Shown here: piece after piece, positions 2,393 through 53,115 of the stretch
Layout: the number at the start of each line of letters is the position of its first letter
How positions within the stretch are numbered: the stretch's first letter is position 1
The notes under the pieces: generated by a model
The model's database searches: none
What the model was told of the DNA's origin: nothing
The model's input: only the letters and a program-made list of their open reading frames with translations
Translations under genes and position numbers: made by a program
NCBI GenBank assembly: GCA_030609135.1
Contig: JAUWCU010000003.1
Coordinates: forward strand, 55 to 64,054
Direction of reading: 5' to 3'
Source: Candidatus Stahliibacteriota bacterium
GTDB lineage: Bacteria > Hydrothermota > Tepidihabitantia > SM23-42
Length of the DNA: 64,000 bases

Positions 2393-2420
2393 ATATTAAC
2401 AAAAAATATACTTAAGTCAA
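2393..2420 (-). promoter_or_regulatory. sigma70-type promoter of the TonB receptor gene
   Basis: Minus strand reads TTGACT-N16-TAATAT, followed by a 20-nt leader with GGAGGT. Confidence 0.55.
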
Positions 2421-2838: not shown

Positions 2839-2866
2839 TTGACATAAGAGAAGCGCTAATTATAAT
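2839..2866 (+). promoter_or_regulatory. sigma70-type promoter of the 856-aa hydrolase gene
   Basis: TTGACA (2839)-N16-TATAAT (2861), 14 nt before ATG 2881. A conserved box GGGATAAAGATGTGTTCAAGTTTCT (2804..2828) lies 10 nt upstream of the -35. Confidence 0.65.
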
Positions 2867-2880
2867 CATTATACGGTCAT

Positions 2881-5451
2881 ATGAATTATCATATTATTTT
2901 AGTGCTTTTCATAAATAATCTTTCATTTATCCCTGGTATTAACGATACAATTACAATACACCAGTGGCAATATCTGGGTCCTTTTTCAATGGGGATGCGT
3001 GAGGGGATCATCGGCGTCGAGGAAAATATTAGACTTCTTGAGGATTTTGAGCCAGATAAAAGGTCGATATATCCAAGTCTTCTCGTGCAGGGCGGCAAAG
3101 TCATGTGGCGAACAATAGAATCTGCTAATGGAATAGTTAAGATCGAATATGAAAATGTCTTATGGGATAGTATTCAGGATTATTATGGTGCTGCCGGAGT
3201 TCTCTGCGGCGCTTATGCCTACGGTGATTTTAGTAGCGGCAGCACAAGGAGAGCATTGGTTATTGCACAAGATGTTTCTTCCTTCATCTTGAACGGCGTG
3301 AAATTCCCGGGTGATCCCTATAGCAATGGATTTTTGCAGGTCCCGGTTGTTCTAAACGAGGGAAAGAACAGAGTAATAGTCAAACTCAGCGGGTTTGGGG
3401 ACCATGAATTCACATTTAAACTCATCCCCGTACCAGGTCCTTTAATGTTGATAACCAAAGATATTACTACACCGGATTTTTTAAGGGGTGAACCGGTATG
3501 TGCCTGGGCAGGGATACCGATTGTCAATGCGACAAATCAGAGACTCTTTGATATTCAACTTAAAATAGAAGGCGTGAACATTAAAACAGACATTCAAACG
3601 GTTGCTAATATAATGCCTTTTTCAGCGGTTAAGATACCATTGAACATCGAATCAGAAGATAAAATAGAGACAGAAGAGGATAGCATTCTGATAACTATAA
3701 CGGCTTCCTTTGACACTTTTTCTACACAAGAAGATTTCTGGATCAAAGTGAAGCATAGAGATGAAGCATATGTTAAGACCTTTGTCTCTAATATAGATAA
3801 TTCATGCCAATACTATGCGATTCTGCCACCAGAAAACTATAATGAAGATTCATCTTATGCCCTCATAATGACTTGTCATGGAGCCAGTGTTAAGGCAAGA
3901 GGTCAGGTGAAAGCCTATACACAGAAGGATTGGGCTTTTGTCGTTGCGCCGACTAATCGCCGCAGGTTTGGTTTTGACTGGCAGGATTGGGGTAGACTCG
4001 ATTTTCTTGAGGTTCTGGAAGATGTTAAGAAGAATTTCAAGATTGATACAAATAGAATCTATCTTACTGGACATTCTATGGGTGGCCATGGTGCCTGGCA
4101 TATCGGCATAACCCATCCAGATATCTTCGCGGCAATGGCACCTTCTGCTGGATGGACCAGCTTTCAACTCTATGTCCCGTGGTTTCTTCAAAAAAGTGAG
4201 CTCTTTGCGCATCCTGATCTGATAAAGTATCGCGATATGGTATTGCGACAAGACAATCCGCTTTTATTCCTGGAAAACGCATATAATCTGCCGATCTATA
4301 TCTTGCAAGGCGGAACTGATGACAATGTGCCTCCAATCCAGGCAAGAATGTTCTGCAAATATCTGACCAATCTTGGCTATGATTATATATACAACGAGCT
4401 TGAGGGCAAAGGTCACTGGTGGAATATAGATTCCACGCCAGGTACTGACTGTGTGGATTTAAAAGAAATGATGGATTTTCTGAAAACCAAGGTGCGCAAC
4501 CCCTACCCTGAACGTATAATCTTCAAAACCTCAGATGTTGACTGTTCAAATAAGGCATACTGGGTGAGGATCGATGAACTTGAAAATCTATACCAGGATG
4601 GGATAATAGATATTTGGAAAACTGGAATGATAGGAGATCACACCGTGTTTTCAGTGGGACCACGCATTGGGTTCTTGGTGAAAACGAGCAACATAAACGG
4701 ATTCACCGTAGTATTAAATGATAAGGTTATTCCTAAAAGCATGCTAGGTGGAAAAATATGGTTTGAAATTAATGGTCAAAAAATTGCCTTCGACTATAAA
4801 GAAATAAGCGAAATTTCCTTCCACAAAAACAATGTGGGATTTGAAATCGTCAAACCGAAAGACCAAGGCTTGAAAAAACAGAAAAGGTTTTATGGACCTA
4901 TAAAAAAGGCATATTTTGAGCCTTTTGTTCTTGTCTATGGCACAACTGGAGATTCGGTTTCGACCGAGAACAACCTTCACCAAGCACGATTACAGTCTTA
5001 TACCTGGTGGTATCGGGCAAATGGATTTGTTGAGATACTGCCTGACACTGAAGTTACCGAAAAAATTATCAAAAACTATAACCTTGTTCTCTTTGGGAAT
5101 CCTGTAACTAACTCCATTCTCAAGTGGATTAGCTACAGATTACCTCTTCATATTGAAGAAGGTAGAGTGATTGTTGATAGAGATACAATAAGGGGGGATC
5201 TCTGTCTTGTAGAAATATATCCCAACCCTCTAAACCCTGAAAAATTCGTATTATTATATTCAGCAACTACAAAACCCGCAGAGAAATTAATCGGTCTATT
5301 TTCCACACTTTATGCAGGTGCCGGTTTACCTGATTTTCTTGTTTATGATAAATCAGCGCTTAAATACGGATGGGGTGGTGTAAACGCAGCCGGTTTTTTT
5401 GACAAAGACTGGAAATTTGATAGTAAATTGAGTTACTACTCAGAACCTTAA
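2881..5451 (+). CDS. Large alpha/beta-hydrolase-fold protein (prolyl-oligopeptidase/esterase-like serine hydrolase core) with long unassigned N- and C-terminal regions
   Basis: 856-aa ORF. Nucleophile elbow LTGHSMGGHGAW; later ..YILQGGTDDNVPP.. and ..GKGHWW.. fit Asp/His triad positions. No motif recognised in the first ~330 or last ~300 aa. Confidence 0.6.
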   Translation: MNYHIILVLFINNLSFIPGINDTITIHQWQYLGPFSMGMREGIIGVEENIRLLEDFEPDKRSIYPSLLVQGGKVMWRTIESANGIVKIEYENVLWDSIQDYYGAAGVLCGAYAYGDFSSGSTRRALVIAQDVSSFILNGVKFPGDPYSNGFLQVPVVLNEGKNRVIVKLSGFGDHEFTFKLIPVPGPLMLITKDITTPDFLRGEPVCAWAGIPIVNATNQRLFDIQLKIEGVNIKTDIQTVANIMPFSAVKIPLNIESEDKIETEEDSILITITASFDTFSTQEDFWIKVKHRDEAYVKTFVSNIDNSCQYYAILPPENYNEDSSYALIMTCHGASVKARGQVKAYTQKDWAFVVAPTNRRRFGFDWQDWGRLDFLEVLEDVKKNFKIDTNRIYLTGHSMGGHGAWHIGITHPDIFAAMAPSAGWTSFQLYVPWFLQKSELFAHPDLIKYRDMVLRQDNPLLFLENAYNLPIYILQGGTDDNVPPIQARMFCKYLTNLGYDYIYNELEGKGHWWNIDSTPGTDCVDLKEMMDFLKTKVRNPYPERIIFKTSDVDCSNKAYWVRIDELENLYQDGIIDIWKTGMIGDHTVFSVGPRIGFLVKTSNINGFTVVLNDKVIPKSMLGGKIWFEINGQKIAFDYKEISEISFHKNNVGFEIVKPKDQGLKKQKRFYGPIKKAYFEPFVLVYGTTGDSVSTENNLHQARLQSYTWWYRANGFVEILPDTEVTEKIIKNYNLVLFGNPVTNSILKWISYRLPLHIEEGRVIVDRDTIRGDLCLVEIYPNPLNPEKFVLLYSATTKPAEKLIGLFSTLYAGAGLPDFLVYDKSALKYGWGGVNAAGFFDKDWKFDSKLSYYSEP

Positions 5452-6902: not shown

Positions 6903-7669
6903 AGTTTTTTAATCACTATTTCAGCGACTTTTTTACCCGACAATAGCATGCCGCCAAAAATAGGACCCATCCTTGGTCCACCAAATACGGCATTTGCTGC
7001 CATGCCAGTGACATATAAATTTGGAAAAACCTCCTTGGTATTTTGCATAGTTAATTGTTCAGCAACCTCTGCCCACATGGACTTTTCACCCTCGATTTTT
7101 CCTGAAGGTGTGAGCAGTTTACCGCCACTTTTCCTTTCGACAATATGAGCTATCTCGCACGGGTGACCAGTTGCATCGATCACTATCTTGGACTTGAAAG
7201 ATAATGGGTCAATATGCAGTTTTGCTAATTCAACGCTTGACCAGTTGATTACGACTCCGTTCACGCTATTCTCACGCACGATTACATCTTCTATGGATAG
7301 TAAATTGTAGATTCTCAAACCTGCCTTTATTGCTTTGTCAGTGAGACATGCGGTTGTCTCTAATGAGTTGGCAACGTAGTAGCCGGGCTGGTATTCATGA
7401 TAACCAATGCCGAATTCATCGAGCAAATGTTTTGCTTCATCTTGTACAACGATTCGATTGAACATGATACCGCCGCCTGGTAAACCACCACCAAGCTTGA
7501 GTCCCCGCTCAAAAAGTAGGGTTTTGTACCCTTTTTGCGCTAGATAATACCCGGCACAGAGTCCAGACGGTCCAGCACCACCGATTATGACATCGCTTTC
7601 AACTGAGCTGAGCAATTCCTTGAGATAGGTTTCGATTATCGCTTTTGTAATGACCGTTTCTTCGATCAT
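6899..7669 (-). CDS. thi4: Thi4-family thiazole biosynthesis enzyme
   Basis: 256 aa. GGAGPSGL dinucleotide-binding motif and ..IDATGH.. block. Size and layout match the Thi4/ribulose-1,5-bisphosphate-synthetase-like family. Confidence 0.8.
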
Positions 7670-8151
7670 TTCAAGACCCCGAACCTTGCTCCTATAGAAA
7701 GTCGGAATGTTACATCAGTGTCGCCGTTATCAGTAATAATCACACCGGGTTCGACAAAAAGATTAGTTGCCCGGCTCCATGGATAGGTTAAACCTAAGCC
7801 GCCGCGGATTGAGAAAAGTGTGACTGAACCACCATTACCTATCATATTAAACCCAAAACCAGCATGTACGTAGGGTTGCGGACCCCGCATCGGGAAATAA
7901 ATAAGTGCATCAAGAGAGTTGCCAAAATTCAAGTAGAATTGTGTGTAATTACCAAAACTGAGTTCTGTAAGACCAAAACGAAAACTTACTGTTTTCAAGG
8001 GGTTGAATATAACATCACAGCCGAGTCCAAAACGCACACTGCCAATATAAAGACTAACCTTTGGTTCAACCTCAACCAATGATCTGTAGCGTTTGGCATC
8101 CGCTGCCACAACAAAGAGCAGTATTGCACCAATGATAAGAATCTTCTTCAT
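7666..8151 (-). CDS. Small outer-membrane beta-barrel-like protein (signal peptide)
   Basis: Start moved to ATG 8151 (AGGAGG 5 nt upstream). Signal peptide [19 protein letters not shown]; Gly/aromatic-rich alternating pattern. Function is inferred only. Confidence 0.45.
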
Positions 8152-8175
8152 ACATCCTCCTTTTTTCATTATGTA

Positions 8176-8203
8176 ATTCTATATACATTTAGTTAAATTT
8201 CAA
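8176..8203 (-). promoter_or_regulatory. promoter of the OMP-thi4-MFS operon
   Basis: Minus strand reads TTGAAA-N16-TAGAAT. The predicted TSS is near 8169, giving a short SD-containing leader. Confidence 0.5.
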
Positions 8204-11148: not shown

Positions 11149-11748
11149 TCATTCTTTAATAATTTCATATACAATGCTCGGGGTGAATCCTCGAGTCAGC
11201 AAGCGACGGACAAGTTTCTGGCGTTCTTTAGGATTTTTTATATCTAAATTGCCCGCTTTTTTTTCGATGTAATTTCTTATCAGTTCTCCCTCATCCCTTG
11301 TGTCAAGCAAATTCGTAATGATTTCTCTATCAACACCCCTTCTAGTCAGTTCGCTTAAGATGAAACGATTCCCCTTTGGCTTCAAGTTTGTATAGTCATT
11401 TACAAAAGCCCTGGCAAACCGTTTATCGTCAAGTGTTTTATCAGCGATCAATTCGTCAATCACTTCATCTGCGAGTGAATTGTCAAAACCAATACGCATC
11501 AGTCTATCCCTGAGTTCCTCAACTGATCTTTCACGATAGTGGAGTATTTTGAATGCTCGCTCCATGATTTTGGCTTTATCTGCATGGTGCACAATTTCAT
11601 CAATTTCCCGGTCGGTAATTTCAACACCTTCATACAAACCATACTGGAGAACTATTTCCTTTGGTAATCCAAATCTGAATTCACCGTCGATAAATATGGA
11701 ACAACGTTTCCTATTTTTTTTCTGAGGTTCGATCTTGCTTATCTTCAT
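11149..11748 (-). CDS. recX: RecX-family recombination regulator
   Basis: 199 aa, helical-repeat composition. It lies immediately downstream of recA and overlaps it. Confidence 0.7.
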
Positions 11749-12754
11749 GCTTGGATCTCTGTGCAGGGTTCATCTCTTCGCGTATTTTCTGTTCGATTTT
11801 CTGGGCGATGTCGCTGTCTGTTTTTAATAACTCGATAACTGCATCACGTCCTTGGCCGATTCGTTCATCGCCGTAAGAATACCAGGAACCTGCTTTCTGG
11901 ATAATTTTCAGATCCACGCCGATATCGACTAATTCTCCATATTTGGATATTCCTTCTCCGTAAATAATATCGAACTCCACTTTCTTAAAAGGTGGTGCGA
12001 GTTTGTTCTTTACCACTCGAACCCTTGTTCTTGAACCGATCATTGTATCGCCTTTCTTTATCGTGGCGATCCGTCTAATATCACATCGGACTGACGAATG
12101 AAACTTTAAAGCCATGCCTCCAGGTGTTGTTTCGGGTGAACCATATATAACCCCGATTTTGTAGCGTATTTGGTTAATGAAAACTGCGCAGGTATTTGAT
12201 TTGCTGATGACGCCAGTCAGTTTTCTCAGTGCTTGAGACATGAGACGGGCAATCAAGCCGACTTGTAGTTCACCCATTTCTCCGGCAATCTCCGCCTTCG
12301 GTACTAAGGCGGCAACTGAATCAAGCACGACAATATCAACACCGCCAGAACGGGTTAGGATTTCGGTAATTTCTAAAGCCTGTTCAGCAGTATCTGGTTG
12401 GGAAATGAGCAGGTCAGTTAGATTGATCCCAAGATTTTGAGCATAAGTTGGGTCAAAAGCGTGTTCGACATCAATGAAGATCGCGGTGCCACCAGCTTTT
12501 TGAGCTTGAGCAATAGCCTCTAAGGCAAGCGTGGTCTTACCACCTGCTTCTGGGCCAAATATCTCTACAACCCGACCACGTGGGAATCCACCAACACCCA
12601 GGGCAAAATCAAGACCGATTGAGCCAGTTGGAATCACTTCGACATCTACTCTTGCTCCTTTGTCGCCAAGGCGCATAATGGATCCTTTACCGAATTGTTT
12701 TTCAATTTGACTGATTGCTACATTCAAGACTTTTTGTTTATCGTCTTTTGCCAT
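11711..12754 (-). CDS. recA: recombinase RecA
   Basis: Walker [13 protein letters not shown]; ..[13 protein letters not shown]..; full-length 347 aa. Confidence 0.97.
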
Positions 12755-12770
12755 ATTCCTCCTTGCCTAT

Positions 12771-12798
12771 ATCATAATTAAAATCGTCACCAAGTCAA
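12771..12798 (-). promoter_or_regulatory. recA promoter
   Basis: Minus strand reads TTCCCCTTGACTTG..: TTGACT-N16-TATGAT, then AAGGAGG before the ATG. It overlaps the phoU stop. Confidence 0.55.
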
Positions 12799-21140: not shown

Positions 21141-21168
21141 ATATTATGAATAAATACGTGCAAGTCAA
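21141..21168 (-). promoter_or_regulatory. promoter of the phoB/phoR-like operon
   Basis: Minus strand reads TTCCCCTTGACTTG (the same 14-mer as at recA): TTGACT-N16-TAATAT. Confidence 0.45.
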
Positions 21169-21326: not shown

Positions 21327-21354
21327 TTGACACCTTATTAACACTTGTTATAAT
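21327..21354 (+). promoter_or_regulatory. promoter of the lipoprotein gene; leaderless-type spacing
   Basis: TTGACA-N16-TATAAT, then 6 nt before ATG 21361. It starts 10 nt after the MITE-like element. Confidence 0.65.
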
Positions 21355-21360
21355 ACTTAT

Positions 21361-22773
21361 ATGAAGAACATAGTATATATAGTTCTATCAGTAATTTTGG
21401 TCGTGAATTGTAGTGAAATGGAGACCAAGTGGGAAGTAAAATTCGAACCAGCAGGTCCAGGTAATTATCGAATCAATGGGATTTCTTCTTCAAAGACATA
21501 TACTACTCCAGACAACTACGACCACCGAGTCAAAGGAGTTCCTTGTTCAAGGACACATTCTTATGTTGTTACTGGGGCATTTTGGGAAGATAAGCAGGAA
21601 TCAGTCTGCATTACTGCAAACTATGATGCTAATGGTGAACTCATCTGGCACACAGTCTATGAATCGCATGGCTTGAAATCTTCGAAAGGAAATGCTATCC
21701 GTACCATCACAGGTGAAATTGAAGAGGTTAAACATGACATTTATGTACTAGCACAAACCACTGACTTAAAAGGTATCAACGCCGTAGTCCTGATACAATA
21801 TGACAGCCTTGGTAATATGCAATGGGACAAGGTTATTGAAAAATCCCGAGGAGAGATAACGAGTGTATTGCTGAACGACCACTTGAATAACCTCTATATA
21901 GCGGGCTGGACAAGTAATTCCGCAAATTCTACAGATATCTTCATTGCCAAATATCGACCTTCAGGAGAACTGGCTTGGTTGAACAAATATCATAACCCTC
22001 CTCTTGTTTTTAATACCTTAGTGTTTTGCTCTAGCAAGAATGACCAGTTTCTGGTTGCCGGTCATCTGAGACATAACAAGGATTTCTTTTTCATGAAATA
22101 TGATAGCCTTGGGAAACTTGTGCATCTGACAAAGTGCGAAACTTCTATGCAGGAGATTTCATTGGCAGATGCACAACTTGATGAACATGGTAATGTTTAT
22201 CTTCTGGGCACAACCCACAACAATAAAACTGGCAAGGATTACGTAACTGTAGTCTATGATAAAAACGACAGTCTCCTATTTGAGAAATGCTTTGATGGAC
22301 CAACGCATCATGACGATGTCGCCAATGCCTTGATTGTGGAGGATTCGTACGCGGGGTCATTGTATGTCTATGCTATCGGCAGCAGTGAGAACGAAAATGG
22401 CGTGAGTGAAGTGCTTACCGTGAAATATGATCTAACCGGCAACGAAATATGGACAAAAGCATTCAAGGGGAGAAAAAACGAATCAGCAAAACCCTATCTG
22501 CACGGTCCCAGAATAATCTATTCTCCAACACAGCACGGCGTCAATAATTTCTACATAACCGGATATGTGGGCGATGATGCATTGGTTTTGAAACACAATA
22601 CTAAAGGATTTATTTCCTGGTTTACAAGATACGCAAAGGTTGGCACAGTATGCAAGCCAACCGCATTCAGAAGTTTCTGCGTTGGTATAGAAAGCGTGTC
22701 AGATAAGGGGTCTGATGCATACTTAATAAAATTCGGAAAAACTGAACAGCTCGGCATTATCCGCTGGGATTAA
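21361..22773 (+). CDS. Lipoprotein with beta-propeller-type repeats
   Basis: Lipobox-like MKNIVYIVLSVILVVNC. Recurrent ..KYDxxGxxxW.. strands (IQYDSLGNMQW, AKYRPSGELAW, VKYDLTGNEIW). Confidence 0.5.
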   Translation: MKNIVYIVLSVILVVNCSEMETKWEVKFEPAGPGNYRINGISSSKTYTTPDNYDHRVKGVPCSRTHSYVVTGAFWEDKQESVCITANYDANGELIWHTVYESHGLKSSKGNAIRTITGEIEEVKHDIYVLAQTTDLKGINAVVLIQYDSLGNMQWDKVIEKSRGEITSVLLNDHLNNLYIAGWTSNSANSTDIFIAKYRPSGELAWLNKYHNPPLVFNTLVFCSSKNDQFLVAGHLRHNKDFFFMKYDSLGKLVHLTKCETSMQEISLADAQLDEHGNVYLLGTTHNNKTGKDYVTVVYDKNDSLLFEKCFDGPTHHDDVANALIVEDSYAGSLYVYAIGSSENENGVSEVLTVKYDLTGNEIWTKAFKGRKNESAKPYLHGPRIIYSPTQHGVNNFYITGYVGDDALVLKHNTKGFISWFTRYAKVGTVCKPTAFRSFCVGIESVSDKGSDAYLIKFGKTEQLGIIRWD

Positions 22774-27640: not shown

Positions 27641-28813
27641 TTATTTCTCCTTGGTGGCATATAGCGAAATCAATTTATTTACAATCTTATCCCAATTGAA
27701 CCTATCGTCAATGCTTTTCTTAGCCCTCTTCCCCATTTCTTCACGTAGTTTTTTATCAATTGCCAGTCTTCGTATTGCCCTGGCAAGTGCCGGGACGTCG
27801 CCGGGCGGGACAAGAATGCCGTTCACACCATCTTCAACAACATCGGTAATGCCCCCAGCCTTCGAGGCAATAACTGGTTTATAGCAACTCATCGCCTCGA
27901 TCAAGACTACACCAAGACCTTCAATATCGCCTTGTTTATCATATACTGCCGGCAGCACAAAAAAGCCGCATTTTTCATAGTGCCGCAACTTTTCATCAAC
28001 TGAAATCCAGCCGGTAAAATAAACCCGGGAGCGTAGATCAAGACGGTCAACAAGGTTTTCCAGTTCAGGTCGCTCTGCTCCATCGCCGATGATCACTAAT
28101 TTATGGGGTATTTCATTTCTTAGCTCAGCCATGGCCTGTATCAAATACTTGATCCCTTTGCGCTCCACCAGCCGGCCAACAAAAAGAATTTCATTTTCAT
28201 CGCTGATGCTCGATACTCTTTCCGGAACTGCAGCGCTGAACGGTATGACTTCAATTTCACTTTTTATATAACTTCCTAATTCAGTTCTTGTATGGGTAGA
28301 TATCGCAGTAATCGTATCAGACTTATTCAGCAAAATCGAAAGACACTTTGTCAGCCACTTGAATTTTTTCGTGAACCAGCGTATTTCGCGTCCATAAAAA
28401 GTAGAGAATAAGCGGGTTTTACCGGCAATGCGGGCGAATACTCCAAAAATGATATGAGGAAATGGCCAGTGAACGTGAACGATATCATATTTTTCTCTTT
28501 TGACTAATTGGACAATTGCCCAGGTACCAGCTATCATATAGAAAAATATCAGCAGTAGGTTTAAGGGGTTGCGGCTTACCCGGTCGACAACGGTTTCGTC
28601 ATGCGTGAGTTTTTCCAGATTTTTGAAGAAATAACGGAAACGATGAACTTTAACCCGGTCAAGGATCTGATCACGCAAACCTTTGTATGATGAAGTAAAT
28701 ACTTCGACATCGATTTTTTTGTCACGAAGCCGGAGTATTAGCTCGGTAAGCCAGGGGGTTATTACATCCCCTTCATAACGTTTGTAAGCAGTAGTAACAA
28801 ATAATACCTTCAT
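27641..28813 (-). CDS. glycosyltransferase family 4 (GT-B)
   Basis: 390 aa; ..EGLGVVLIEAMSCYKPVIASKAGG.. (E-x7-E region). Confidence 0.8.
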   Translation of the reverse strand: MKVLFVTTAYKRYEGDVITPWLTELILRLRDKKIDVEVFTSSYKGLRDQILDRVKVHRFRYFFKNLEKLTHDETVVDRVSRNPLNLLLIFFYMIAGTWAIVQLVKREKYDIVHVHWPFPHIIFGVFARIAGKTRLFSTFYGREIRWFTKKFKWLTKCLSILLNKSDTITAISTHTRTELGSYIKSEIEVIPFSAAVPERVSSISDENEILFVGRLVERKGIKYLIQAMAELRNEIPHKLVIIGDGAERPELENLVDRLDLRSRVYFTGWISVDEKLRHYEKCGFFVLPAVYDKQGDIEGLGVVLIEAMSCYKPVIASKAGGITDVVEDGVNGILVPPGDVPALARAIRRLAIDKKLREEMGKRAKKSIDDRFNWDKIVNKLISLYATKEK

Positions 28814-29472
28814 TTCTTAAATTTCCACTTGATCAAGCTCCAGATTGCCTGAATGCCGTCTTTCACACCTATTTTCTTACCTTTTTTGCGTCCGGTGTAG
28901 CTAATCGGTATTTCGACAATTTTCTCTCTTCTTTTCAGGATTTTGCAGGTTATTTCGGGTTCGATCTCAAAATGCGATGAGATTAGGTGTAGATCCCTTA
29001 GGAGATCAGTTTTTATGACCTTATAACATGTCTCCATGTCTGATATATGGCTGCCAAATAAAACATTAGTCAAAAAGGTTAAGAACCGATTCGCAAAATA
29101 ACTTGATTTTAAGAAGCTACCTTTTCCTAAAATTCTTGAACCATACACAACATTTGTTCTTTTTTCTTTAATAGGTTTAATCAGCTGTGGATACTGTTTA
29201 GGTGAATACTCTAAATCAGCATCCTGAATAATAACTATATCTCCAGAGGCAATTTGCAAACCACTTCGGATGGCGGCTCCTTTTCCTCTGTTTTTCTCGT
29301 GAAATATTGTTTTTATTCCTTTTCGCCTTTTCAAAAAATCTCTGGTGCCGTCCACTGAAAAATCATCAACTACGACAATTTCGCGTGCTAAACCTACTTT
29401 TTCGACATCGGTTATTATCGTCTCTATATCGTTCTTCTCATTATATACAGGGATTATCACCGTAACCTCCAT
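28810..29472 (-). CDS. glycosyltransferase family 2 (polyprenol-phosphate sugar transferase-like)
   Basis: VIIPVYNE, VVDDFSVDGT, IQDADLEY. Confidence 0.8.
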   Translation of the reverse strand: MEVTVIIPVYNEKNDIETIITDVEKVGLAREIVVVDDFSVDGTRDFLKRRKGIKTIFHEKNRGKGAAIRSGLQIASGDIVIIQDADLEYSPKQYPQLIKPIKEKRTNVVYGSRILGKGSFLKSSYFANRFLTFLTNVLFGSHISDMETCYKVIKTDLLRDLHLISSHFEIEPEITCKILKRREKIVEIPISYTGRKKGKKIGVKDGIQAIWSLIKWKFKK

Positions 29473-29478
29473 GCCCAG

Positions 29479-29506
29479 ATTATATGGAAAAATCCCTCAA
29501 TGTAAA
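29479..29506 (-). promoter_or_regulatory. promoter of the GT2-GT4-scpB-queG-like-DUF4416 operon; leaderless-type spacing
   Basis: Minus strand reads TTTACA-N16-TATAAT, then 6 nt (ctgggc) before ATG 29472. Confidence 0.55.
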
Positions 29507-29811: not shown

Positions 29812-29839
29812 TTGACATTTCGTGCTATATATCTATAAT
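29812..29839 (+). promoter_or_regulatory. tRNA-Glu promoter
   Basis: TTGACA-N16-TATAAT, 7 nt before tRNA position 1. The conserved box GGGATAAAGATGTGTCCAAGGTTTCT (29776..29801) lies 10 nt upstream of the -35. Confidence 0.65.
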
Positions 29840-29846
29840 ATCCCAC

Positions 29847-29922
29847 GGCGCCATCGTCTAGCTTGGTTTAGGACGTCGCCCTCTCAAGGCGAAGATCACG
29901 GGTTCAAATCCCGTTGGCGCTA
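29847..29922 (+). tRNA. tRNA-Glu (anticodon CUC)
   Basis: Hand-folded cloverleaf. Acceptor GGCGCCA/TGGCGCT (G1-U72); D arm GTCT/GGAC; anticodon stem TCGCC/GGCGA with loop CTCTCAA; T arm ACGGG-TTCAAAT-CCCGT. No encoded CCA; a T-run follows. Confidence 0.9.
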
Positions 29923-29939: not shown

Positions 29940-29967
29940 TTGACAAAATGAAGATTTTGCATATAAT
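29940..29967 (+). promoter_or_regulatory. promoter of the bactofilin-MBL-purQ operon
   Basis: TTGACA-N16-TATAAT; ~36-nt leader ending in AAAGGAGG. Confidence 0.6.
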
Positions 29968-30003
29968 TTATGTTAATAAATTACTGATTCAAAGGAGGAT
30001 TGG

Positions 30004-30351
30004 ATGGCGAAAGAAGGTCAGATAGACAGTGTTGTGGGAAAAGGGACTGTTATAAATGGCGATATCAAAGTTGATGGTTCAACTAAAATTGACGGGAAGG
30101 TCAAAGGAAACCTTACAGTAAAAGATAGTCTCTTTGTTGGTAAAAGTTCCGTGATAAAAGGTGATATTTACTGCAAATCAGCAATCATTGGAGGTAAGAT
30201 TCAAGGCAATATCCATATCCAAAACATTGTTGAATTCCAGAGTGGCGCGCAGATGTTTGGTGACATTATTTGCAAAGGCATAATCATCCATGCGGGCGTC
30301 TTTTTTGAAGGTACTTGCCAGATGTCTGAAAAAACAAAGGAAAAGCCGTAG
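30004..30351 (+). CDS. bactofilin-family cytoskeletal protein
   Basis: 115 aa. Beta-helix repeats ..INGDIKVDGSTKIDGKVKGNLTV..IKGDIYCKSAIIGGKIQGNI.. Confidence 0.8.
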   Translation: MAKEGQIDSVVGKGTVINGDIKVDGSTKIDGKVKGNLTVKDSLFVGKSSVIKGDIYCKSAIIGGKIQGNIHIQNIVEFQSGAQMFGDIICKGIIIHAGVFFEGTCQMSEKTKEKP

Positions 30352-34473: not shown

Positions 34474-34501
34474 TTGACAGCCCAATTTTTCTCTATATAA
34501 T
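34474..34501 (+). promoter_or_regulatory. promoter of the RnfB-like/agmatinase operon
   Basis: TTGACA-N16-TATAAT, 8 nt before ATG 34510. Confidence 0.6.
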
Positions 34502-34509
34502 ACCATGTT

Positions 34510-35526
34510 ATGAATGCAATAGAAGTCATAAAATCAGTTGCTGGTCTTGGCGGTCTCAGTTTGATTTTTGGTATTGTTCTGGCTGTTGCATTTAAGAAAC
34601 TCGCGGTCAAAGTTAGTGAACAAGAGCAGAAACTGAGAGATGCTTTGCCAGGTACAAATTGCGGTGCCTGTGGTTTCCCGGGTTGTGATGCCTATGCCCA
34701 TGCCTTAGCTGAAAATACTGGTGAGGTAGCGTCAAACCTCTGCACCGTCGGTGGTGCTGAAACAATTAGGAAAATCGGCGAAATCCTGGGCATTGAGGTT
34801 GAGGCAGCAGAACCAATGATGTGTGTATTACGATGCCGGGGCGGTAGGGAAAACGCAGTTGAAAAGTTTGAGTATATAGGGCCAGGTGATTGCCGAAGCA
34901 ATTACATCCTCTTGGGCGGTAATAAAGCATGTGAGTGGGGGTGTTTGGGCGGTGGTCACTGTGAGACTGTTTGTCCATTTGACGCCATTACAATGGGGCC
35001 GAATCGTCTACCTATTATTGATCCACACAAATGCACGGCATGTGGTATTTGCGTAAAAGAGTGTCCGCGTCAGGTACTTGAGTTACTACCCCGCGTTCAA
35101 TTGATATACTTGGCCTGTAAAACTCTGGATAAAGGTAAAGTGGTCAAAAATGTCTGCAAGGTTGGTTGTATTGGTTGTACCCTCTGTGTTAAGTCCTGTC
35201 CTTATGAAGGAGCAATACAAATGGATGGTAATCTTCCCAAGATGGACTATACCAAGTGTATATCATGTGGTATTTGTTATAATAAATGCCCTACCAAATC
35301 ATTTGTTGACCGTGCTCCAGCGCGACCTTATGCGATTATTTCTTCAAAGTGCGATGGCTGTGGAGAATGCGTAAAAGTATGTTTGTTCAAGGCAATTGAG
35401 GGAAAACCAGGAAAACGCCACACCGTGATAAAAGATAAGTGCATAGGCTGTGGCAGGTGTTTTGAAGTTTGTCCGATAAAAGTTATTACCATGGCTGGCG
35501 CCTTGGGATATGTAGAAACAGCATAG
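34510..35526 (+). CDS. RnfB-like membrane-anchored polyferredoxin
   Basis: N-terminal TM helix; RnfB-type cluster LPGTNCGACGFPGCDAYA; at least four CxxCxxCxxxCP ferredoxin motifs. No other rnf genes are nearby. Confidence 0.7.
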   Translation: MNAIEVIKSVAGLGGLSLIFGIVLAVAFKKLAVKVSEQEQKLRDALPGTNCGACGFPGCDAYAHALAENTGEVASNLCTVGGAETIRKIGEILGIEVEAAEPMMCVLRCRGGRENAVEKFEYIGPGDCRSNYILLGGNKACEWGCLGGGHCETVCPFDAITMGPNRLPIIDPHKCTACGICVKECPRQVLELLPRVQLIYLACKTLDKGKVVKNVCKVGCIGCTLCVKSCPYEGAIQMDGNLPKMDYTKCISCGICYNKCPTKSFVDRAPARPYAIISSKCDGCGECVKVCLFKAIEGKPGKRHTVIKDKCIGCGRCFEVCPIKVITMAGALGYVETA

Positions 35527-42758: not shown

Positions 42759-45069
42759 ATGAAAAGAGTGGTCATTGGGATATGTGCAATAGTGATAGGG
42801 TTTATGCCCTTGTCCATCTATGGTTCTGAAATTGCAACTGTAACTTTGGAAACCTGGATGAATGCTTCCCAGGGTTTTGAACCAAACCTTGGTCAGATTG
42901 GCGATTTTGAAGGGAATGTGGTTAATAATATCTTGTGCGCTTTCAAGGGTAATGGACTTGGTATATTCATTAATGAAAAAGGGGTAAGTTATGTTATTTA
43001 TCAAGCGGAAAAAATCTTAAGAGATGAGTCCCAGAGAATTGATTTAAGAGAACCTGAAAAAAATCTTATCCACTATGCAAGGATTGATGTGGAGCTTGTG
43101 AATTCCAATTTTGAAAAGTCAAAAATCGTTTATGAAGATGAGCTACCCGGATATGCGCATTATTATTTGCCACAATGTCCTGATGGTATTCTTTATGTGA
43201 AAAGTTTCAGAAAGGTGCGGATTAAAGAGATATATCCGGGCGTTGACTGGATATGGAAATATGAAGATGGACGGTTGCATCATGAATTTGAGGTCAAACC
43301 TGCGTCTGATGTTTCAAAGATAAAGATGAAGGTTAAATGGGCTGATGTTGAGATAAGCGAAAATGGTAGAAAACTTATATATTCTACGCCACTTGGTAAG
43401 ATAAAAGATGGAAATATACTTGGTTATGAAAATCCGAAATCCAAAATCCGAAATCCGAGACCGATTGATATTTCTTATATAAAAAATGAAGATGGGATAA
43501 TTTCCTTTGAAATAAAGAATTATTCCGGTAAAAATCCTCTAATTATTGACCCACCCCTTGCACTATTATGGGGGACATATTACGGAGGCAATGATCCTGA
43601 TCGTGGCTATTCAATTACAACCGATAATTCAGGTAATATTTTTGTAACTGGGACCACTTATTCAACAGAATTTTCCCACACAAGACCCCGGTGGTGGTGC
43701 TTATTATCAAGGTACAAAAGCAGGATATTTTGATGTATTTGTTTTAAAGTTTACAAATACAGGGGTTCGGCTTTGGGCGACATATTACGGAGGAAATGAC
43801 AGAGATGGGGGCGCTTCAATTATAACTGACAATTCAGGTAATGTTTTTGTAGGTGGAACCACCTATTCAACAGATTTTGCCACACAGGACCCTGGCGGTG
43901 GTGCTTATTATCAAGGAACATTTGCAGGTGTTGGTGATGCATTTATTTTGAAGTTTACAAATGTTGGTATTCGCCTCTGGGCAACATATTACGGCGGAAA
44001 TGATAGTGATATGGTGTGTTCGATTACCACTGATAATTCAGGTAATGTTTTTATAACTGGGTGGACTCTTTCAACAGATTTTCCCATACAGGACCCTGGC
44101 GGTGGTGCCTATTATCAGGGAGCAAATGCAGGTTATAGAGATGCATTTATTTTGAAGTTTACAAATACGGGTGTTCGTCAATGGGCAACGTATTACGGAG
44201 GAAATGCTGGTGATTGGTGCAATTCAATTACAGCGGATAGTTCAGGTAATGTTTTTATAGCCGGATACACCTATTCAACAAATTTCCCCACATATGACCC
44301 CGGGGGAGGTGCTTATTATCAGGAAACACTTGGAGGTGTTCATGATGCATTTATTTTGAAGTTTACAAATACCGGTGTTCGGCAAAGGGCGACATATTAC
44401 GGCGGAAATAATGAGGATATGTGTAATTCAGTTACAACTGATGCTTCAGGTAATATTTTTGTGACTGGATACACTTTTTCACCAGATTTTCCCACATATG
44501 ACCCCGGGGGAGGTGCTTATTATCAGGGAGCACTTGCAGGCGGATATGATGCATTTGTCTTGAAGTTTACAAATAGCGGTATTCGCCAATGGGCAACGTA
44601 TTACGGAGGAAATGATGTGGATTGTGGCTTTTCAATTAAAACCGATAATTCAGGTAATGTTTTTGTAACTGGACTAACTGTTTCAACAAATTTCCCAACA
44701 CAGGACCCTGGCGGTGGTGCTTATTATCAGGGGACACATGCAGGTGTTGGTGATGTATTTCTTTTGAAGTTTGAAACTTCACTGGGAATTGTAGAGGAAA
44801 ATACTAAAAAGAATGAGCCTTCGGTTCTAATTATTTCTTCTATCTTTATCAACAGAATACGAATAGACCTTTCATTATCTTCTAAAAAACCCATGGCTCT
44901 TATCCTTTATAATTTATTGGGGCAGAAAATCTTTTCAAGGTCTTATCCTGAAACTAAGTCTCTTATTATAAGAGGCAGAGAGATTGAAGAATTGAGTAAA
45001 GGAATATATTTCTTATCTGTCTATTCAGGAAAAAAAGAGATTGGCAGGGTTAAGCTGATAAAGAGATAA
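42759..45069 (+). pseudogene. SBBP beta-propeller-repeat surface protein with T9SS-type C-terminal sorting domain, interrupted by a 1-nt frameshift near 43668-43670
   Basis: Track ORFs 42717..43733 and 43948..45069 are one gene. Frame +1 from 43669 reads [42 protein letters not shown].., continuing the repeat. Start at ATG 42759 (AAGGAGG; signal MKRVVIGICAIVIGFMPLSIYG). The tail is ..[22 protein letters not shown]. Confidence 0.75.
43569..44780 (+). repeat. Six tandem 204-nt (68-codon) coding repeats (SBBP modules)
   Basis: W/R of (W)ATYYGGN falls at 43569, 43774, 43978, 44182, 44386 and 44590. The extra nucleotide in the first interval is the frameshift. Long stretches look near-identical at DNA level between modules. 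Confidence 0.85.
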
Positions 45070-48053: not shown

Positions 48054-49031
48054 CTATTTATTAACTTCATTAGCTAAGTACCAATCTATCATTCTTCGGA
48101 ACCCTTCTGTTATCTCTATCTTTTGTATAAACCCCTGTTCTCGTATTTTCTCTGCTTTATGGTGTGTAGCGGTAGCGAACTTCTTCATTCTTGCGGCGGT
48201 AATGGGAAGGTTGCGTCCTGTTATCTTGGCAAGGAGATCAAATATGCTGCCGAGAGATACTGCAAGAAATAAAGGTAGTTTGATTTTCGGTGCACCATAA
48301 GGCAGGCATGTGCCAATCACGTCTACTATCTGAGCTATAGTCATTTGTGGTTCATCAGAATAAGAGAAAATCTGAATACCAGGTTTTAGTTTGTCAATCA
48401 AGAATATGTTTGCATCCACTAAATTTTCTACATAAGCAACCGATTTTATATTATCACCTTTACCAACAAAAACAAATTTCTTCTTGTATATTTTGTCAAT
48501 TAAATTATAAACATTCGCGAAATTATTTGGCCCAAATATTACAGATGGTCTAATAATTATTACATTTCTGCTTTTGTCATCATCAACCCACTTCTGTATA
48601 ACTTTTTCTGCAGCCAGTTTCGATTCACCATAATTATTATCTGGTTGCGGAATAGTATTTTCAGTGCTGGGTTCGTCGTTTGTTCCGTATACTGCCACAG
48701 AGCTATAGAAAATCAGCTTCTTGATCTGCAATTTGGCTGCGCAGTCGAGCAGCATTTGGGTACCGGTTTCATTTACGTGAAAGAATTCTTCCCTTGTGAC
48801 GCCAAAATCATGGTGTTTTGCTGCGAGCGTAATGATTAAATCCACGCCCCGCGCTGCTTTAAGGATATCTTCAGGACATAGCATATTACCAACAAGGCAA
48901 GTGCAGAGCTTATTCAGTTCTTTTGGACCAGGGTTGATATCCAAGCCAATGACTTCATGTTTTTTCTCGACAAGCTTCTTAACCAGAAATTGACCGATAA
49001 AACCTGTGGAACCTATCACCAGTATTTTCAT
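48054..49031 (-). CDS. NAD-dependent epimerase/dehydratase
   Basis: VIGSTGFIGQ; YGESK (YxxxK); 325 aa. Confidence 0.8.
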   Translation of the reverse strand: MKILVIGSTGFIGQFLVKKLVEKKHEVIGLDINPGPKELNKLCTCLVGNMLCPEDILKAARGVDLIITLAAKHHDFGVTREEFFHVNETGTQMLLDCAAKLQIKKLIFYSSVAVYGTNDEPSTENTIPQPDNNYGESKLAAEKVIQKWVDDDKSRNVIIIRPSVIFGPNNFANVYNLIDKIYKKKFVFVGKGDNIKSVAYVENLVDANIFLIDKLKPGIQIFSYSDEPQMTIAQIVDVIGTCLPYGAPKIKLPLFLAVSLGSIFDLLAKITGRNLPITAARMKKFATATHHKAEKIREQGFIQKIEITEGFRRMIDWYLANEVNK

Positions 49032-49044
49032 GTGGATATTATAG

Positions 49045-50238
49045 CTAAAATGGATAATATTTCAATATTTCTCTTACTACTTGTTTTGAATCGAATTTTT
49101 GAAGAGCTATATCTCTACTTGCTTGGCCCATACTGGAAATCAACCCTGGGTTAGCAATATACTTTTCCATGGCTGAGGCAAGTTTTGCTGAATCCTTAAT
49201 TGGCACCAGAAAACCATTTATACCATCCTCAACAACCTCCCTACAGCCAGTTGAATCGGTAGTAATTATGGGCATTCCCATTGCGGCACCTTCTAATAGT
49301 GATAAAGGAAGCCCCTCTCGATAATAGGATGGCAAAACTATCACATCTGCCTTTTCATAATAGGTTTTTATATTATCAGTCATGCCAAAGTATTTCACTG
49401 TGCCTTCTTTATTCCATTTCTCCAATTGCTCTGAAGATATGCCTTTTGGGTTTTGTAGATCTACAGGACCCAATAACCAGAAATCAACGTTATTATATTT
49501 CTTGCGGAGCGTATATGCAGCATCGACAAACTCTTTAATCCCTTTGTCCCATAACATGCGGGCGGCAAGAATGAAGGTGACTACTTTTTTTCGCTCGTGC
49601 TTACGTGGCGAAAATTTGGCGGTATCAACACCTGTTCCTGGAATCACGCTTGTTTTCTGTTTATCTACCATTTTATGTTCAAGAAAGTAATTTCTATCAT
49701 CCTGATTTTGGAAAAATACATGTTGGGAGAATAGCATAGTTCTTCGGTAGAGAAATCTTACAATCTTTTGAACCCAGAACTTCTTGAAACTAGTACCAGT
49801 AAAGACATAACCCAATCCTGGAACCATATTGTAGATATGTCTAACACGCGATACGCGGGCTGCTATTGTGCCATAGATCACAGGTTTAACAGTGAAGTGT
49901 TGGACTATATCTGGCTTGTGGCGTTTATAAATGCTAAGGAATTTGAGAAATAGTACAATATCCTCAAATGGATTAATGCCACTGCGTGTAATCTGTATAT
50001 CTAGGTGCTTAATACCGTATTCTTGAAAATGTTTTGCATAGGAGTCAAACGGAGCAAGTGCAAATACCTGGTATCCACGCTTTACCAGTTCTTTAAGAAG
50101 CGGTAAACGAAAATTGAAAAGATACCAGGATGTGTTACTTGAAACTACAGTTTTTTTTGGTTTATCGTGAGACACTCGGGTTATTATATACGTTGGCATA
50201 ATAAAGTCAAGGATTCTCAAATGATTATTTCTTGACAT
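49045..50238 (-). CDS. glycosyltransferase family 4 (GT-B)
   Basis: ..YYREGLPLSLLEGAAMGMPIITTDSTGCRE..; alternative start at M14 (50199). Confidence 0.75.
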   Translation of the reverse strand: MSRNNHLRILDFIMPTYIITRVSHDKPKKTVVSSNTSWYLFNFRLPLLKELVKRGYQVFALAPFDSYAKHFQEYGIKHLDIQITRSGINPFEDIVLFLKFLSIYKRHKPDIVQHFTVKPVIYGTIAARVSRVRHIYNMVPGLGYVFTGTSFKKFWVQKIVRFLYRRTMLFSQHVFFQNQDDRNYFLEHKMVDKQKTSVIPGTGVDTAKFSPRKHERKKVVTFILAARMLWDKGIKEFVDAAYTLRKKYNNVDFWLLGPVDLQNPKGISSEQLEKWNKEGTVKYFGMTDNIKTYYEKADVIVLPSYYREGLPLSLLEGAAMGMPIITTDSTGCREVVEDGINGFLVPIKDSAKLASAMEKYIANPGLISSMGQASRDIALQKFDSKQVVREILKYYPF

Positions 50239-51981: not shown

Positions 51982-53082
51982 TTATAATTGTTCGCTATTC
52001 AAGAATTTTTTTTGCGGTCTGTCCAAAAACGGCAGAATTGCTTTATAATTTTCCCTGCCAACATCATCCCAGGTTCTTAATTTTTTGCTTAACCGGACAT
52101 TGTTTTTCATTATGGCATATCTTAAATTAGTATCACATGCTAATTTGCGAATTGCCAGAGCAAGCGATTCAGAATCTTCAGTGTCATAGAGAATACCATT
52201 GGTATTGTTGTCAATGATACCAACAGTTGTCGGTATACTAGATGCAATTACCGGAAGCCCAAATGAAATTGCTTCTACTAGAACCATACCAAATGTTTCG
52301 TGACGCGATGGAAAAACGAATAAGTCAGCCTTCTTATAGAGGTTTGAGAGTTCATTTGGTGACAAGCAACCATGAAATGATACATGGTCAGTCAATTGAC
52401 TTTCGTTGATTGTTTTTTGAATATTTCTGAAATAACTCGAATTTCTGTTATATAAACCAGCAACGTCCAAATGCAAGTCGAGATCTTTCAATCTACCCAT
52501 GGCCTTAATTAAAATATCCAAGCCCTTTCGCCATTCAACATGTCCGGTGAATAGTATTTTACTAACCTGCCTGTGAAATAATACTTCGTTCTGTCCTACA
52601 ACATTGGGCGCAGGATTGACTACAACTATTTTTTTTCTTTCGATATGAAAAACTTTGAATTGTTGGATGGCGGCTTTACTTGGTATAATAAGCAATGAGG
52701 CGCCTTGAAGAATTAGATATTCGCACAGAAATTCAAGCCATCTCATAAAGAAATTTTTCCTGAGATTGTATTGGGTTAAATGACAACCACATCCGTATTT
52801 GTTTCCCATTAGGCGGCTGAAAAAAAGCGGAATTAAAAGATAAAAATAGAGATTATGGTTGGTAAAAGAAAAAATACCTTTTCTGTTTCTCAAAAAGTGT
52901 TTAAGGATATAAACAACGAAAAGAAAACGATTATTTCTGGCTTTTATTGGAACTGTATCGCAATTAAACACATCCATATTTAATTTTTCACGCTTCAGAT
53001 ATTGTATAGTATTTGCTAAATAGTAATGTCCACCTGTACTAAGATTCTTGAAATTTCTATGAATTACTATGAGCTTATTCAT
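51982..53082 (-). CDS. glycosyltransferase family 4 (GT-B)
   Basis: ..PSRHETFGMVLVEAISFGLPVIASSIP.. Confidence 0.8.
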   Translation of the reverse strand: MNKLIVIHRNFKNLSTGGHYYLANTIQYLKREKLNMDVFNCDTVPIKARNNRFLFVVYILKHFLRNRKGIFSFTNHNLYFYLLIPLFFSRLMGNKYGCGCHLTQYNLRKNFFMRWLEFLCEYLILQGASLLIIPSKAAIQQFKVFHIERKKIVVVNPAPNVVGQNEVLFHRQVSKILFTGHVEWRKGLDILIKAMGRLKDLDLHLDVAGLYNRNSSYFRNIQKTINESQLTDHVSFHGCLSPNELSNLYKKADLFVFPSRHETFGMVLVEAISFGLPVIASSIPTTVGIIDNNTNGILYDTEDSESLALAIRKLACDTNLRYAIMKNNVRLSKKLRTWDDVGRENYKAILPFLDRPQKKFLNSEQL

Positions 53083-53115
53083 AATAATATAGTAGCATAA
53101 TATTATTTCCAGCCT

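Follow-up and report, generated by a model that had tools for sequence, protein, structure and literature searches.

Near-consensus promoters with a preferred 16-nucleotide spacer and predicted leaderless genes in a contig of Candidatus Stahlbacteria

How is a gene translated when its start codon lies so close behind the promoter that there is no room for a ribosome-binding site? This question is raised by a stretch of 64,000 nucleotides (nt) from a Candidatus Stahliibacteriota bacterium (contig JAUWCU010000003.1 of assembly GCA_030609135.1, positions 55 to 64,054 of the forward strand), called the window hereafter. In the window, the hexamer TTGACA at 21327-21332 is followed by a 16-nt spacer, TATAAT at 21349-21354, the six letters acttat, and the ATG of a gene at 21361. 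A preliminary description of the window had listed about 20 such hexamer pairs, nearly all with the same spacer, and had proposed that leaderless mRNAs are used beside mRNAs led by a Shine-Dalgarno (SD) sequence. Here we report that the pairs are strongly enriched with a 16-nt spacer both in the window and in its relatives, and that start codons cluster a few nt behind their -10 boxes. We consider it likely, judging from sequence comparisons, that these are near-consensus housekeeping promoters of the sigma-70 type with a preferred 16-bp spacing, at which transcription would initiate about 6-8 nt after the -10 box; where the transcription start site (TSS) falls on a start codon, leaderless mRNAs would result alongside SD-led ones.

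The window has a GC content of 39% and contains recA, alaS, a two-component system, polysaccharide-synthesis genes and one tRNA gene. Its RecA is 94-98% identical to that of Candidatus Stahlbacteria metagenome-assembled genomes (MAGs), 76-82% identical to that of many genomes labelled 'candidate division WOR-3', and 60-68% identical to RecA of other phyla. Judged by RecA, the window belongs to Candidatus Stahlbacteria / candidate division WOR-3, groups that carry the names Ca. Stahliibacteriota and Caldifarciminota in the NCBI taxonomy. Proteins identical to those of the window were found on short metagenomic contigs only. A recA scan supplied the loci for comparison: 32 WOR-3/Stahlbacteria loci (~490 kb) formed the test set and 48 loci of other phyla (~700 kb) the control. 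Spacers were counted in a WOR-3 subset of 23 genomes or loci (365 kb) and in the control (701 kb), and 34 further metagenome loci were used for the orthologues of one gene, 39416 (below). Single loci are given by their numbers (L007 and so on) where they have to be told apart.

A promoter motif with a 16-nt spacer

We counted TTGACA-N16-TATAAT sites (N16 being a spacer of any 16 nt) with at most one mismatch and took 100 dinucleotide-preserving shuffles of the window as background. The window contains 10 perfect N16 pairs and one perfect N17 pair, where about 0.03 or fewer would be expected per spacer length. With one mismatch allowed there are 15 N16 sites against a shuffle mean of 1.04, and none of the 100 shuffles reached 15. 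No other spacer length between 13 and 21 nt was enriched. A scan at low stringency (9 of 12 matches) gave 67 sites versus 51.7 in the shuffles, barely above background. Because the enrichment is present at high stringency and disappears at low stringency, the signal is a population of near-consensus sites with fixed spacing, seen only at high stringency and with the N16 spacer, and not an effect of general AT-richness.

All eleven plus-strand sites of the preliminary description were recovered as listed: eight are perfect at N16, those at 53598 and 57653 have TTGACC and TTGACG as their -35 hexamers, and the spacer at 42659 is 17 nt. Of its minus-strand sites (named by the low end of the -10 box), those at 8176, 12771, 29479, 53116, 61355 and 62460 are clear N16 pairs with 0-2 mismatches; the remaining two, at 2393 and 21141, turned out to be weaker, with TAATAT as the -10 box. 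Three sites had been absent from that list, namely a perfect orphan promoter at 53294 and two promoters of the leaderless type at 49038-49065 and 50183-50210, both on the minus strand. The hexamers are those of sigma-70-type promoters, near TTGACA and near TATAAT, with A at position 2 and T at position 6 of the -10 box.

The same scan was run on the test and control loci. The numbers of N16 and N17 sites were 15 and 1 in the window, 19 and 1 in Stahlbacteria loci, 70 and 13 in the 23 WOR-3 loci, and 2 and 20 in the control phyla. When TAnnnT was counted at each offset after TTGAC, the WOR-3 loci peaked at 16 (103 sites against a background of ~15, with 27 at N17), and the control loci peaked at 17 (36 against ~14). 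The density of N16 sites was ~15-23 per 100 kb in every WOR-3 locus set, which corresponds to about one for every few genes and would be expected if the motif stood before most transcription units. The regularity thus persists beyond the window, as far as ~490 kb from 32 relatives can stand for whole genomes. The preference for N16 across WOR-3 is borne out, with controls peaking at 17, and only the wording 'near-uniform' in the preliminary description was slightly too strong, given the N17 promoters among them. The modal spacer of 16 lies inside the range tolerated by sigma-70, 17 +/- 1 bp, but not at its usual optimum of 17. A survey of 49 species with mapped starts found spacers of predominantly 17 bp and TSSs centred 7 bp after the -10 box (PMC12641261). 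Our literature search, whose coverage was incomplete and which is no proof of novelty, returned no report of a lineage with a 16-bp spacer mode.

An alignment of 85 promoters showed T at -16 in 64 of the 85, within a T-rich run from -19 to -16, and no TRTG motif; T directly 5' of the -35 hexamer was nearly absent (1/85). The extended -10 element TGn was not enriched, with T at -15 in 18 and G at -14 in 26 of the aligned promoters, and we rejected an extended -10 promoter type on this ground. Among the listed strong sites of the window, only that at 21327 carries TGn. The Bacteroidota-type promoter (-33 TTTG / -7 TAnnTTTG) was rejected as well: TTTG-N17-21-TAnnTTTG had 3 matches in the window versus 2.9 expected, none of them before a gene start.

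Start codons directly behind the -10 box

We next considered d, the number of nt between the -10 box and the start codon. In eight of the 54 window genes, the start codon follows a -10 box at 5-8 nt, too close for an SD to fit in between; these cases make up about one third of the 22 gene-linked promoters. The features concerned are as follows.

21327..21354, plus strand: perfect N16 promoter with TG at -15/-14, conserved in L007, L008, L011, L012 and L013
21361..22773, plus strand: predicted leaderless gene for a 470-residue putative lipoprotein, ATG 21361, d = 6, no SD
28810..29506, minus strand: TTTACA-N16-TATAAT (29506-29479), then a predicted leaderless gene for a GT2 glycosyltransferase, ATG 29472, d = 6; GT2 domain from residue 4
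34474..35526, plus strand: perfect N16 promoter (34474-34501), then a predicted leaderless or near-leaderless gene for an Fe-S protein, ATG 34510, d = 8
39383..40618, plus strand: perfect N16 promoter (39383-39410), then a predicted leaderless gene for an NAD-dependent epimerase/dehydratase, GTG 39416, d = 5
48054..49065, minus strand: TTGAAA-N16-TATAAT (49065-49038), then a predicted leaderless epimerase gene, ATG 49031, d = 6; Pfam Epimerase from residue 3, at profile position 1
49045..50210, minus strand: TTGACT-N16-TATAAT (50210-50183), then a predicted leaderless gene for a GT4 glycosyltransferase, GTG 50175, d = 7
60111..61382, minus strand: TTGACT-N16-TATACT (61382-61355), then a predicted leaderless gene for a Wzz/GNVR chain-length determinant, ATG 61346, d = 8; Wzz domain from near residue 5 of the 411-residue form
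62031..62487, minus strand: TTGACT-N16-TACAAT (62487-62460), then a predicted leaderless gene for a nucleotidyltransferase (Polbeta/MNT-type), ATG 62453, d = 6

Six of these starts had been proposed before, and their distances are as given there: 6 nt at 21361, 29472 and 62453, 5 nt at the GTG 39416, and 8 nt at 34510 and 61346. The starts at 49031 and 50175 are additional.

In the 23 WOR-3 loci, the start of a long open reading frame (ORF) lay at d = 5-8 behind 21 of the 70 N16 promoters (10 at 5 nt and 8 at 6 nt). Random positions in these loci have such a start with a probability of 3%, hence P=1e-15; the corresponding test in the window gave 6 of 16 (P=1e-6). When the -35 box was ignored and TATAAT followed by an ORF-opening start was scanned for, a peak at d = 5-6 was again seen in WOR-3 and nothing in the control phyla. 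None of the window cases is of the -10-only type known from Deinococcus-Thermus, as all have a TTGACA-like hexamer at 16 nt. The WOR-3 set of leaderless promoters was itself selected on the -35 box; the coupling of -35 and -10 is confirmed by the offset peak of TAnnnT after TTGAC. TTG was used as the start codon in none of the 21 WOR-3 cases (17 ATG and 4 GTG) and in none of the 8 window cases. In the scan ignoring the -35 box, the WOR-3 starts were 22 ATG, 8 GTG and 1 TTG, and the four chance hits in the control were 3 TTG and 1 GTG. Such avoidance of TTG would be expected if the first base of the codon were also the initiating purine.

The proteins themselves bear on where these genes start. 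Pfam domains begin at residues 1-9 of the proteins read from the short starts (GT2 at residue 4, Epimerase at residue 3, Polbeta at residue 9). The N-terminus of the 21361 product, MKNIVYIVLSVILVVNC, resembles a lipoprotein-type signal peptide, and that of the 39416 product, MSQQLNILVTGAAG, is the first strand of a Rossmann fold. In the orthologues of 21361 (L007, L008, L011, L012 and L013; 57-90% protein identity) the arrangement cTTGACAc-N15-TATAAT-N5/6-ATGAAGAAC is kept. Spacer and discriminator diverge among these loci, their genomic neighbourhoods differ, and the similarity begins a few nt upstream of the -35 box. The promoter of 29472 and an ATG or GTG at d = 6-7 are kept in L007, L008, L016, L024 and L025, down to 61% identity, with ATG and GTG interchanging. 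For 39416, 12 of 14 orthologues (57-89% identity over the N-terminal 60 residues) have TTGACx-N16/17-TATAAT 5-9 nt before an ATG or GTG; homologues below 57% identity are without the promoter, and most have a GGAG/AGGA-type SD-like motif shortly upstream of the ATG. Domain boundaries, the signal peptide of 21361 and the conservation in orthologues all suggest that the short start codons are the true N-termini. The short distance between -10 box and start, which the preliminary description had taken from six genes, therefore holds as a real class: it is enriched (21/70 versus 3%), absent in control phyla, conserved in orthologues of three genes, and in agreement with Pfam boundaries and a signal peptide.

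Public annotation differs at some of these genes. For the GT4 gene at 50175, public calls (window 49045-50238; also L003-L006) give proteins of 384 or 397 residues versus 376, and so run through the gene's own promoter. A look-up of the exact sequence of the 39416 product in public records gave no match, which probably reflects different public start calls and does not count against the gene. Automated callers seem to mis-place leaderless starts in the WOR-3 lineage.

We also examined the one tRNA gene of the window.

29812..29922, plus strand: perfect N16 promoter (29812-29839), then tRNA-Glu(CTC) at 29847-29922, the tRNA beginning 7 nt after the -10 box

In all eight readable WOR-3 loci (the window, L007, L008, L016, L021, L024, L025 and L028), exactly 7 nt separate the -10 box from G1 of this tRNA, although their sequence varies. 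Because the 5' end of a tRNA is set by its structure and not by ORF calling, the gene provides an independent calibration of the TSS. The predicted arrangement shows that polymerase would have to start no later than the eighth nt after the -10 box, just where the leaderless codons sit. A 5' leader of about 1 nt or less is predicted for this tRNA, which may need little or no processing by RNase P. Other tRNA genes nearby (Ile, Leu, Arg) have leaders, and the others in the loci have leaders or no adjacent promoter. Promoter and tRNA-Glu (window 29812-29950) thus make up a minimal transcription unit. The CCA end is not encoded in tRNA-Glu. In L016 and the Stahlbacteria loci, the discriminator base is followed directly by a run of T; the acceptor stem may therefore also serve as the hairpin of a terminator.

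Proposed initiation and competing explanations

The events that we propose are these. RNA polymerase holoenzyme with the primary sigma factor would bind TTGACA and TATAAT 16 bp apart and start about 6-8 nt after the -10 box. At about one third of the promoters, the A or G of the ATG or GTG would then be the first transcribed base, and the mRNA would have neither leader nor SD. On such an mRNA, ribosome and initiator tRNA would bind the 5'-terminal start codon directly; direct translation from a 5'-terminal codon is established in Mycobacterium and Deinococcus (PMC6028130, PMC4007540, PMC12340547). At other promoters, the AGGAGG SD would begin almost at the 5' end of the transcript, and at tRNA-Glu(CTC) the mature 5' end would lie at the start point. 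Where exactly transcription starts, which sigma factor acts and how the mRNAs are translated are here deduced from what can be read directly in the loci: the motif, how it is spaced and enriched, where it lies with respect to starts, and how it is conserved and specific to the lineage. The coexistence of two initiation modes, leaderless and SD-led, had been put forward for this organism before; it gains support from the comparative and statistical tests, and SD-led genes do stand beside the leaderless type in the window.

Several points weigh against these proposals. The TSS positions in WOR-3 are predictions. Conservation, enrichment and lineage counts rest on ~490 kb around recA and on 34 metagenome loci. 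A tblastn search with approximate E. coli regions 2 and 4 as queries gave no match to a sigma-70 gene in the window and the 32 WOR-3 loci. No 16S rRNA gene lies in the window, where Rfam matched tRNA only, or in the fetched loci. The N17 spacer is used by ~16% of near-consensus WOR-3 promoters. At d = 8-9 (34510, 61346 and several orthologues of 39416), the transcript may carry a leader of 1-3 nt. In the gene starting at 29472, an in-frame GTG at 29460, 12 nt downstream, is preceded by GGAGG, and an SD-led start on a 12-nt leader is conceivable in this strain.

The last point leads to the possibility that the start codons are mis-assigned and that the real starts lie further downstream, on ordinary leaders without SD. 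Start calling from ORFs is inherently ambiguous, and besides the GTG in the 29472 gene there was an ATG, at 8169, that looked leaderless and proved unconserved. The GGAGG-GTG alternative of 29472, however, is not conserved, being absent from distant orthologues. Against mis-assignment also stand the Pfam domains that begin at residues 1-9, the signal peptide of 21361, the start codon that orthologues of three genes keep at d = 5-9, be it as ATG or as GTG, the lack of TTG in the leaderless class, and the sharp peak at 5-6 nt with its P value. We therefore regard mis-assigned starts as improbable.

It could also be that the motif is that of a specialised sigma factor or regulon, for instance one of the cell envelope, in which case the 16-nt spacing would tell nothing about the housekeeping holoenzyme. 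Several leaderless genes are indeed polysaccharide or envelope genes, and cCTTGACTt marks a subclass seen before recA and the response regulator gene. But the sites lie upstream of many functional classes, including recA, tRNA-Glu, bactofilin, an M1 peptidase, an Fe-S protein and hydrolases besides cell-envelope genes. Their hexamers are the exact sigma-70 consensus, and their density is similar in every WOR-3 locus set. Since the motif precedes genes as different as those for RecA, a tRNA, a peptidase and cell-envelope proteins, we take it to be the housekeeping promoter, and a specialised factor seems to us quite improbable.

A third explanation is that the TATAAT boxes are not promoters and act as A/U-rich translation enhancers in longer leaders, like the non-SD initiation of Bacteroidota. 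WOR-3 is usually placed with the FCB superphylum, where non-SD, AT-rich start signals dominate (PMC6028130; PMC3160421), and many window genes are without SD. A translation signal, however, would have no need for the TTGACA-like hexamer that stands exactly 16 nt upstream of each box; the same geometry precedes a tRNA gene, which is not translated, in 8 of 8 loci; conservation begins approximately at the -35 box; and the Bacteroidota motif TTTG...TAnnTTTG is no more frequent than expected (3 sites versus 2.9). Translation enhancers are thus a very improbable account. That the sites are chance hits in AT-rich DNA, or copies of some repeat, has a practically negligible probability: AT-rich hexamers are common at 39% GC and the loose scan gave a small excess, but the 15 high-stringency sites, a number reached by none of the shuffles, already refute chance, only a single spacer length is enriched, and the spacer sequences all differ, hence they are not repeat copies.

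If the sites are sigma-70-type housekeeping promoters, as we consider likely, a broader idea can be suggested tentatively, and we hold it to be possible although somewhat short of probable. The core-promoter geometry of the primary WOR-3 holoenzyme may be shifted by 1 bp, with an optimum of 16 versus the 17 reported for every surveyed lineage. Near-consensus promoters may be the norm, and starts may be hard-wired to functional 5' ends (start codon, SD, or +1 of a tRNA). This would give a 'minimal-UTR' transcriptome, UTR standing for untranslated region, with at least one tRNA perhaps needing little or no RNase P processing.

Actinobacteria and Deinococcus-Thermus are known to combine leaderless with SD-led initiation. 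Novel in the present case are the phylum, the complete -35 element that the leaderless promoters carry and the preference for a spacer of 16 nt. GeneMarkS-2 assigned 1028 of 4769 bacteria to 'group C' (leaderless plus SD-led), mainly Actinobacteria, e.g. Mycobacterium tuberculosis, and Deinococcus-Thermus (PMC6028130). Group C resembles what we see, with a Pribnow box 6-8 nt before the first genes of operons, the others SD-led, ~25-50% of operons leaderless, and both ATG and GTG in use; the WOR-3 genomes differ in lineage and in the full consensus -35 box of their leaderless promoters. In Deinococcus-Thermus, a -10 motif a few bp before the ORF likewise drives leaderless transcripts, phylum-wide and for ~30% of ORFs (PMC12340547; differential RNA sequencing of D. 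deserti, PMC4007540). Most of those promoters, however, are without a -35 box, TANNNT being sufficient, and an added -35 works at 17 bp, whereas the -35 of WOR-3 is near-perfect at 16 bp. Thermotoga maritima shares the information-rich near-consensus promoters, the minimal intergenic space and a class of very short 5'UTRs, 11-17 nt in length, in which the SD occupies the 5' end (Latif et al. 2013, PMC3636130). It differs in that leaderless transcripts were not detected and most promoters have an extended -10 (TGn) (PMC3636130); WOR-3 has no TGn enrichment and many genes of the leaderless type. With E. coli sigma-70 and B. subtilis SigA, WOR-3 has in common the hexamers and an implied distance of ~7 nt from -10 box to start, but the spacer is 17 there and has its mode at 16 in WOR-3, with a T-rich signature of its own.

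Of FCB-group genomes, 90% fall in 'group B' (non-SD ribosome-binding sites) (PMC6028130), and Zheng et al. 2011 found leaderless genes in 1 of 37 Bacteroidetes/Chlorobi genomes (PMC3160421). In the literature covered, which was incomplete, we found no paper linking WOR-3 with leaderless genes. The present data would add a mostly uncultured, FCB-associated phylum to the users of leaderless mRNAs, a list so far dominated by Actinobacteria and Deinococcus-Thermus. They describe a clear and well-supported lineage-specific variant and do not overturn current understanding. In practice, gene callers that lack a leaderless model seem to mis-place WOR-3 starts, and the first genes in WOR-3 MAGs would get correct starts from a simple TTGACA-N16-TATAAT model. 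A phylum-wide 16-bp preference, if true, would be a natural experiment on how the distance between sigma regions 2 and 4 sets promoter geometry. Because a first cultured WOR-3 isolate, strain sy37, exists (PMC12285271), mapping of start sites is feasible, and the sites described here would be ready-made strong promoters for genetic tools in that isolate.

SD-led, leadered and orphan promoters

About 17 of the 54 window genes have an SD of the AGGAGG, GGAGG or GGAG/GAGG type at 3-11 nt. The seven SD-led starts named in the preliminary description (8151, 12754, 18363, 30004, 37166, 42759 and 45127) all have AGGAGG or GGAGG 3-6 nt upstream. At three of the promoters, the SD begins almost at the predicted TSS: recA at 12754 (d = 16), 37166 (d = 17) and 8151 (d = 24). 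Among the SD-led WOR-3 genes, d clusters at 17-22 and at 29-33 nt, and therefore the 5'UTRs would be ~11-16 and ~23-27 nt long. The promoters followed by an SD in the window are these.

7666..8203, minus strand: TTGAAA-N16-TAGAAT (8203-8176), then an SD-led gene, true start ATG 8151
11711..12798, minus strand: TTGACT-N16-TATGAT (12798-12771), then SD-led recA, AGGAGG, ATG 12754, d = 16
29940..30351, plus strand: perfect N16 promoter (29940-29967), then SD-led bactofilin, AGGAGG, ATG 30004, d = 36
37121..39016, plus strand: perfect N16 promoter (37121-37148), then SD-led M1 peptidase, ATG 37166, d = 17, predicted 5'UTR ~11 nt
42659..42759, plus strand: the sole promoter with a 17-nt spacer, TTGACA 42659, TATAAT 42682-87, main gene at ATG 42759 behind AGGAGG
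2393..2420, minus strand: weaker TTGACT-N16-TAATAT, then GGAGG and ATG 2372

In front of the 8151 gene, the ATG at 8169 was rejected as a ninth leaderless start: the 11 orthologous loci all retain the AGGAGG-led start and show no conservation of this ATG. The arrangement of promoter and SD before bactofilin is kept in L007, L008, L016, L021 and L023-L025, and also in L028 with GGAGG. In the M1 peptidase gene, AGGAGG begins approximately at the predicted TSS. The recA promoter is kept in about 20 of 32 Stahlbacteria/WOR-3 loci, and the rest have another upstream arrangement. In about half of the WOR-3 lineages (L014, L016, L018, L020, L021 and L024-L028; around position 10001 in most), the promoter is replaced by repeated motifs like CTGTAATC / CCGTAATC directly 5' of the SD. 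These could be a regulatory site, perhaps an operator of the SOS type, or the end of the upstream gene.

The promoter at 42659 has a second TATAAT directly after the first, giving the tandem TATAATTATAAT. An ATG at 42694, 6 nt after the first -10 box, opens an ORF of 15 codons (MNFDTTKFWGKLNYY) that ends 8 nt before the AGGAGG of the 42759 gene. This ORF may be a leaderless upstream ORF or may have arisen by chance.

Many window genes have neither the leaderless geometry nor an SD, including those at 2881, 53082 and 57731 and many genes inside operons, and therefore there are at least three classes of start in this organism. The remaining promoters are listed here.

2839..5451, plus strand: perfect N16 promoter (2839-2866), then an S9-type hydrolase gene, ATG 2881, d = 14, no SD
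21141..21168, minus strand: weaker divergent TTGACT-N16-TAATAT of the OmpR-type response regulator gene, ATG 21124
51982..53143, minus strand: perfect N16 promoter (53143-53116), then a GT4 gene, ATG 53082, d = 33, with no recognisable SD (leadered, non-SD)
53294..53321, plus strand: perfect N16 promoter, orphan, with no intact ORF downstream
53598..53625, plus strand: TTGACC-N16-TATAAT, 214 nt before ATG 53840
57653..57680, plus strand: TTGACG-N16-TATAAT, 50 nt before ATG 57731
62828..62855, plus strand: perfect N16 promoter, 21 nt before ATG 62877, with a weak purine-rich leader (gaagaaggga)

The 14-nt gap without SD before the S9-type hydrolase is kept in L007, L010 and L011. It predicts a 5'UTR of ~7-8 nt, which would make the gene neither leaderless nor SD-led. 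The orphan promoter lies in an intergenic region of 757 bp; in the stretch 53294-53580, the sequence behind the promoter looks by eye like a decayed coding region, one piece of which recalls a SAM-methyltransferase motif, and could be a pseudogene or a non-coding RNA.

In the divergent intergenic region between the response regulator gene and the 21361 gene, an exact search found a perfect 12-nt inverted repeat, GTAATTGTTCAA / TTGAACAATTAC, at 21191-21202 / 21307-21318. It brackets 104 bp, and 8 nt lie between its end and the -35 box of the 21327 promoter. The 210 nt upstream of the corresponding promoter are unrelated in L007, L008, L012 and L013, and L011 has only an 8-nt sequence like a half-site, TTGTTCAA. 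The inverted repeat may act as an operator of the neighbouring OmpR-type regulator, or it may be a small element that was inserted here.

The alaS gene (window 8435-10987) starts, in most WOR-3 loci, within a few nt of the apparent end of the upstream gene and without an SD. In the Stahlbacteria loci it is preceded by a GA-rich stretch (ataaagagaggg), another class of non-SD start.

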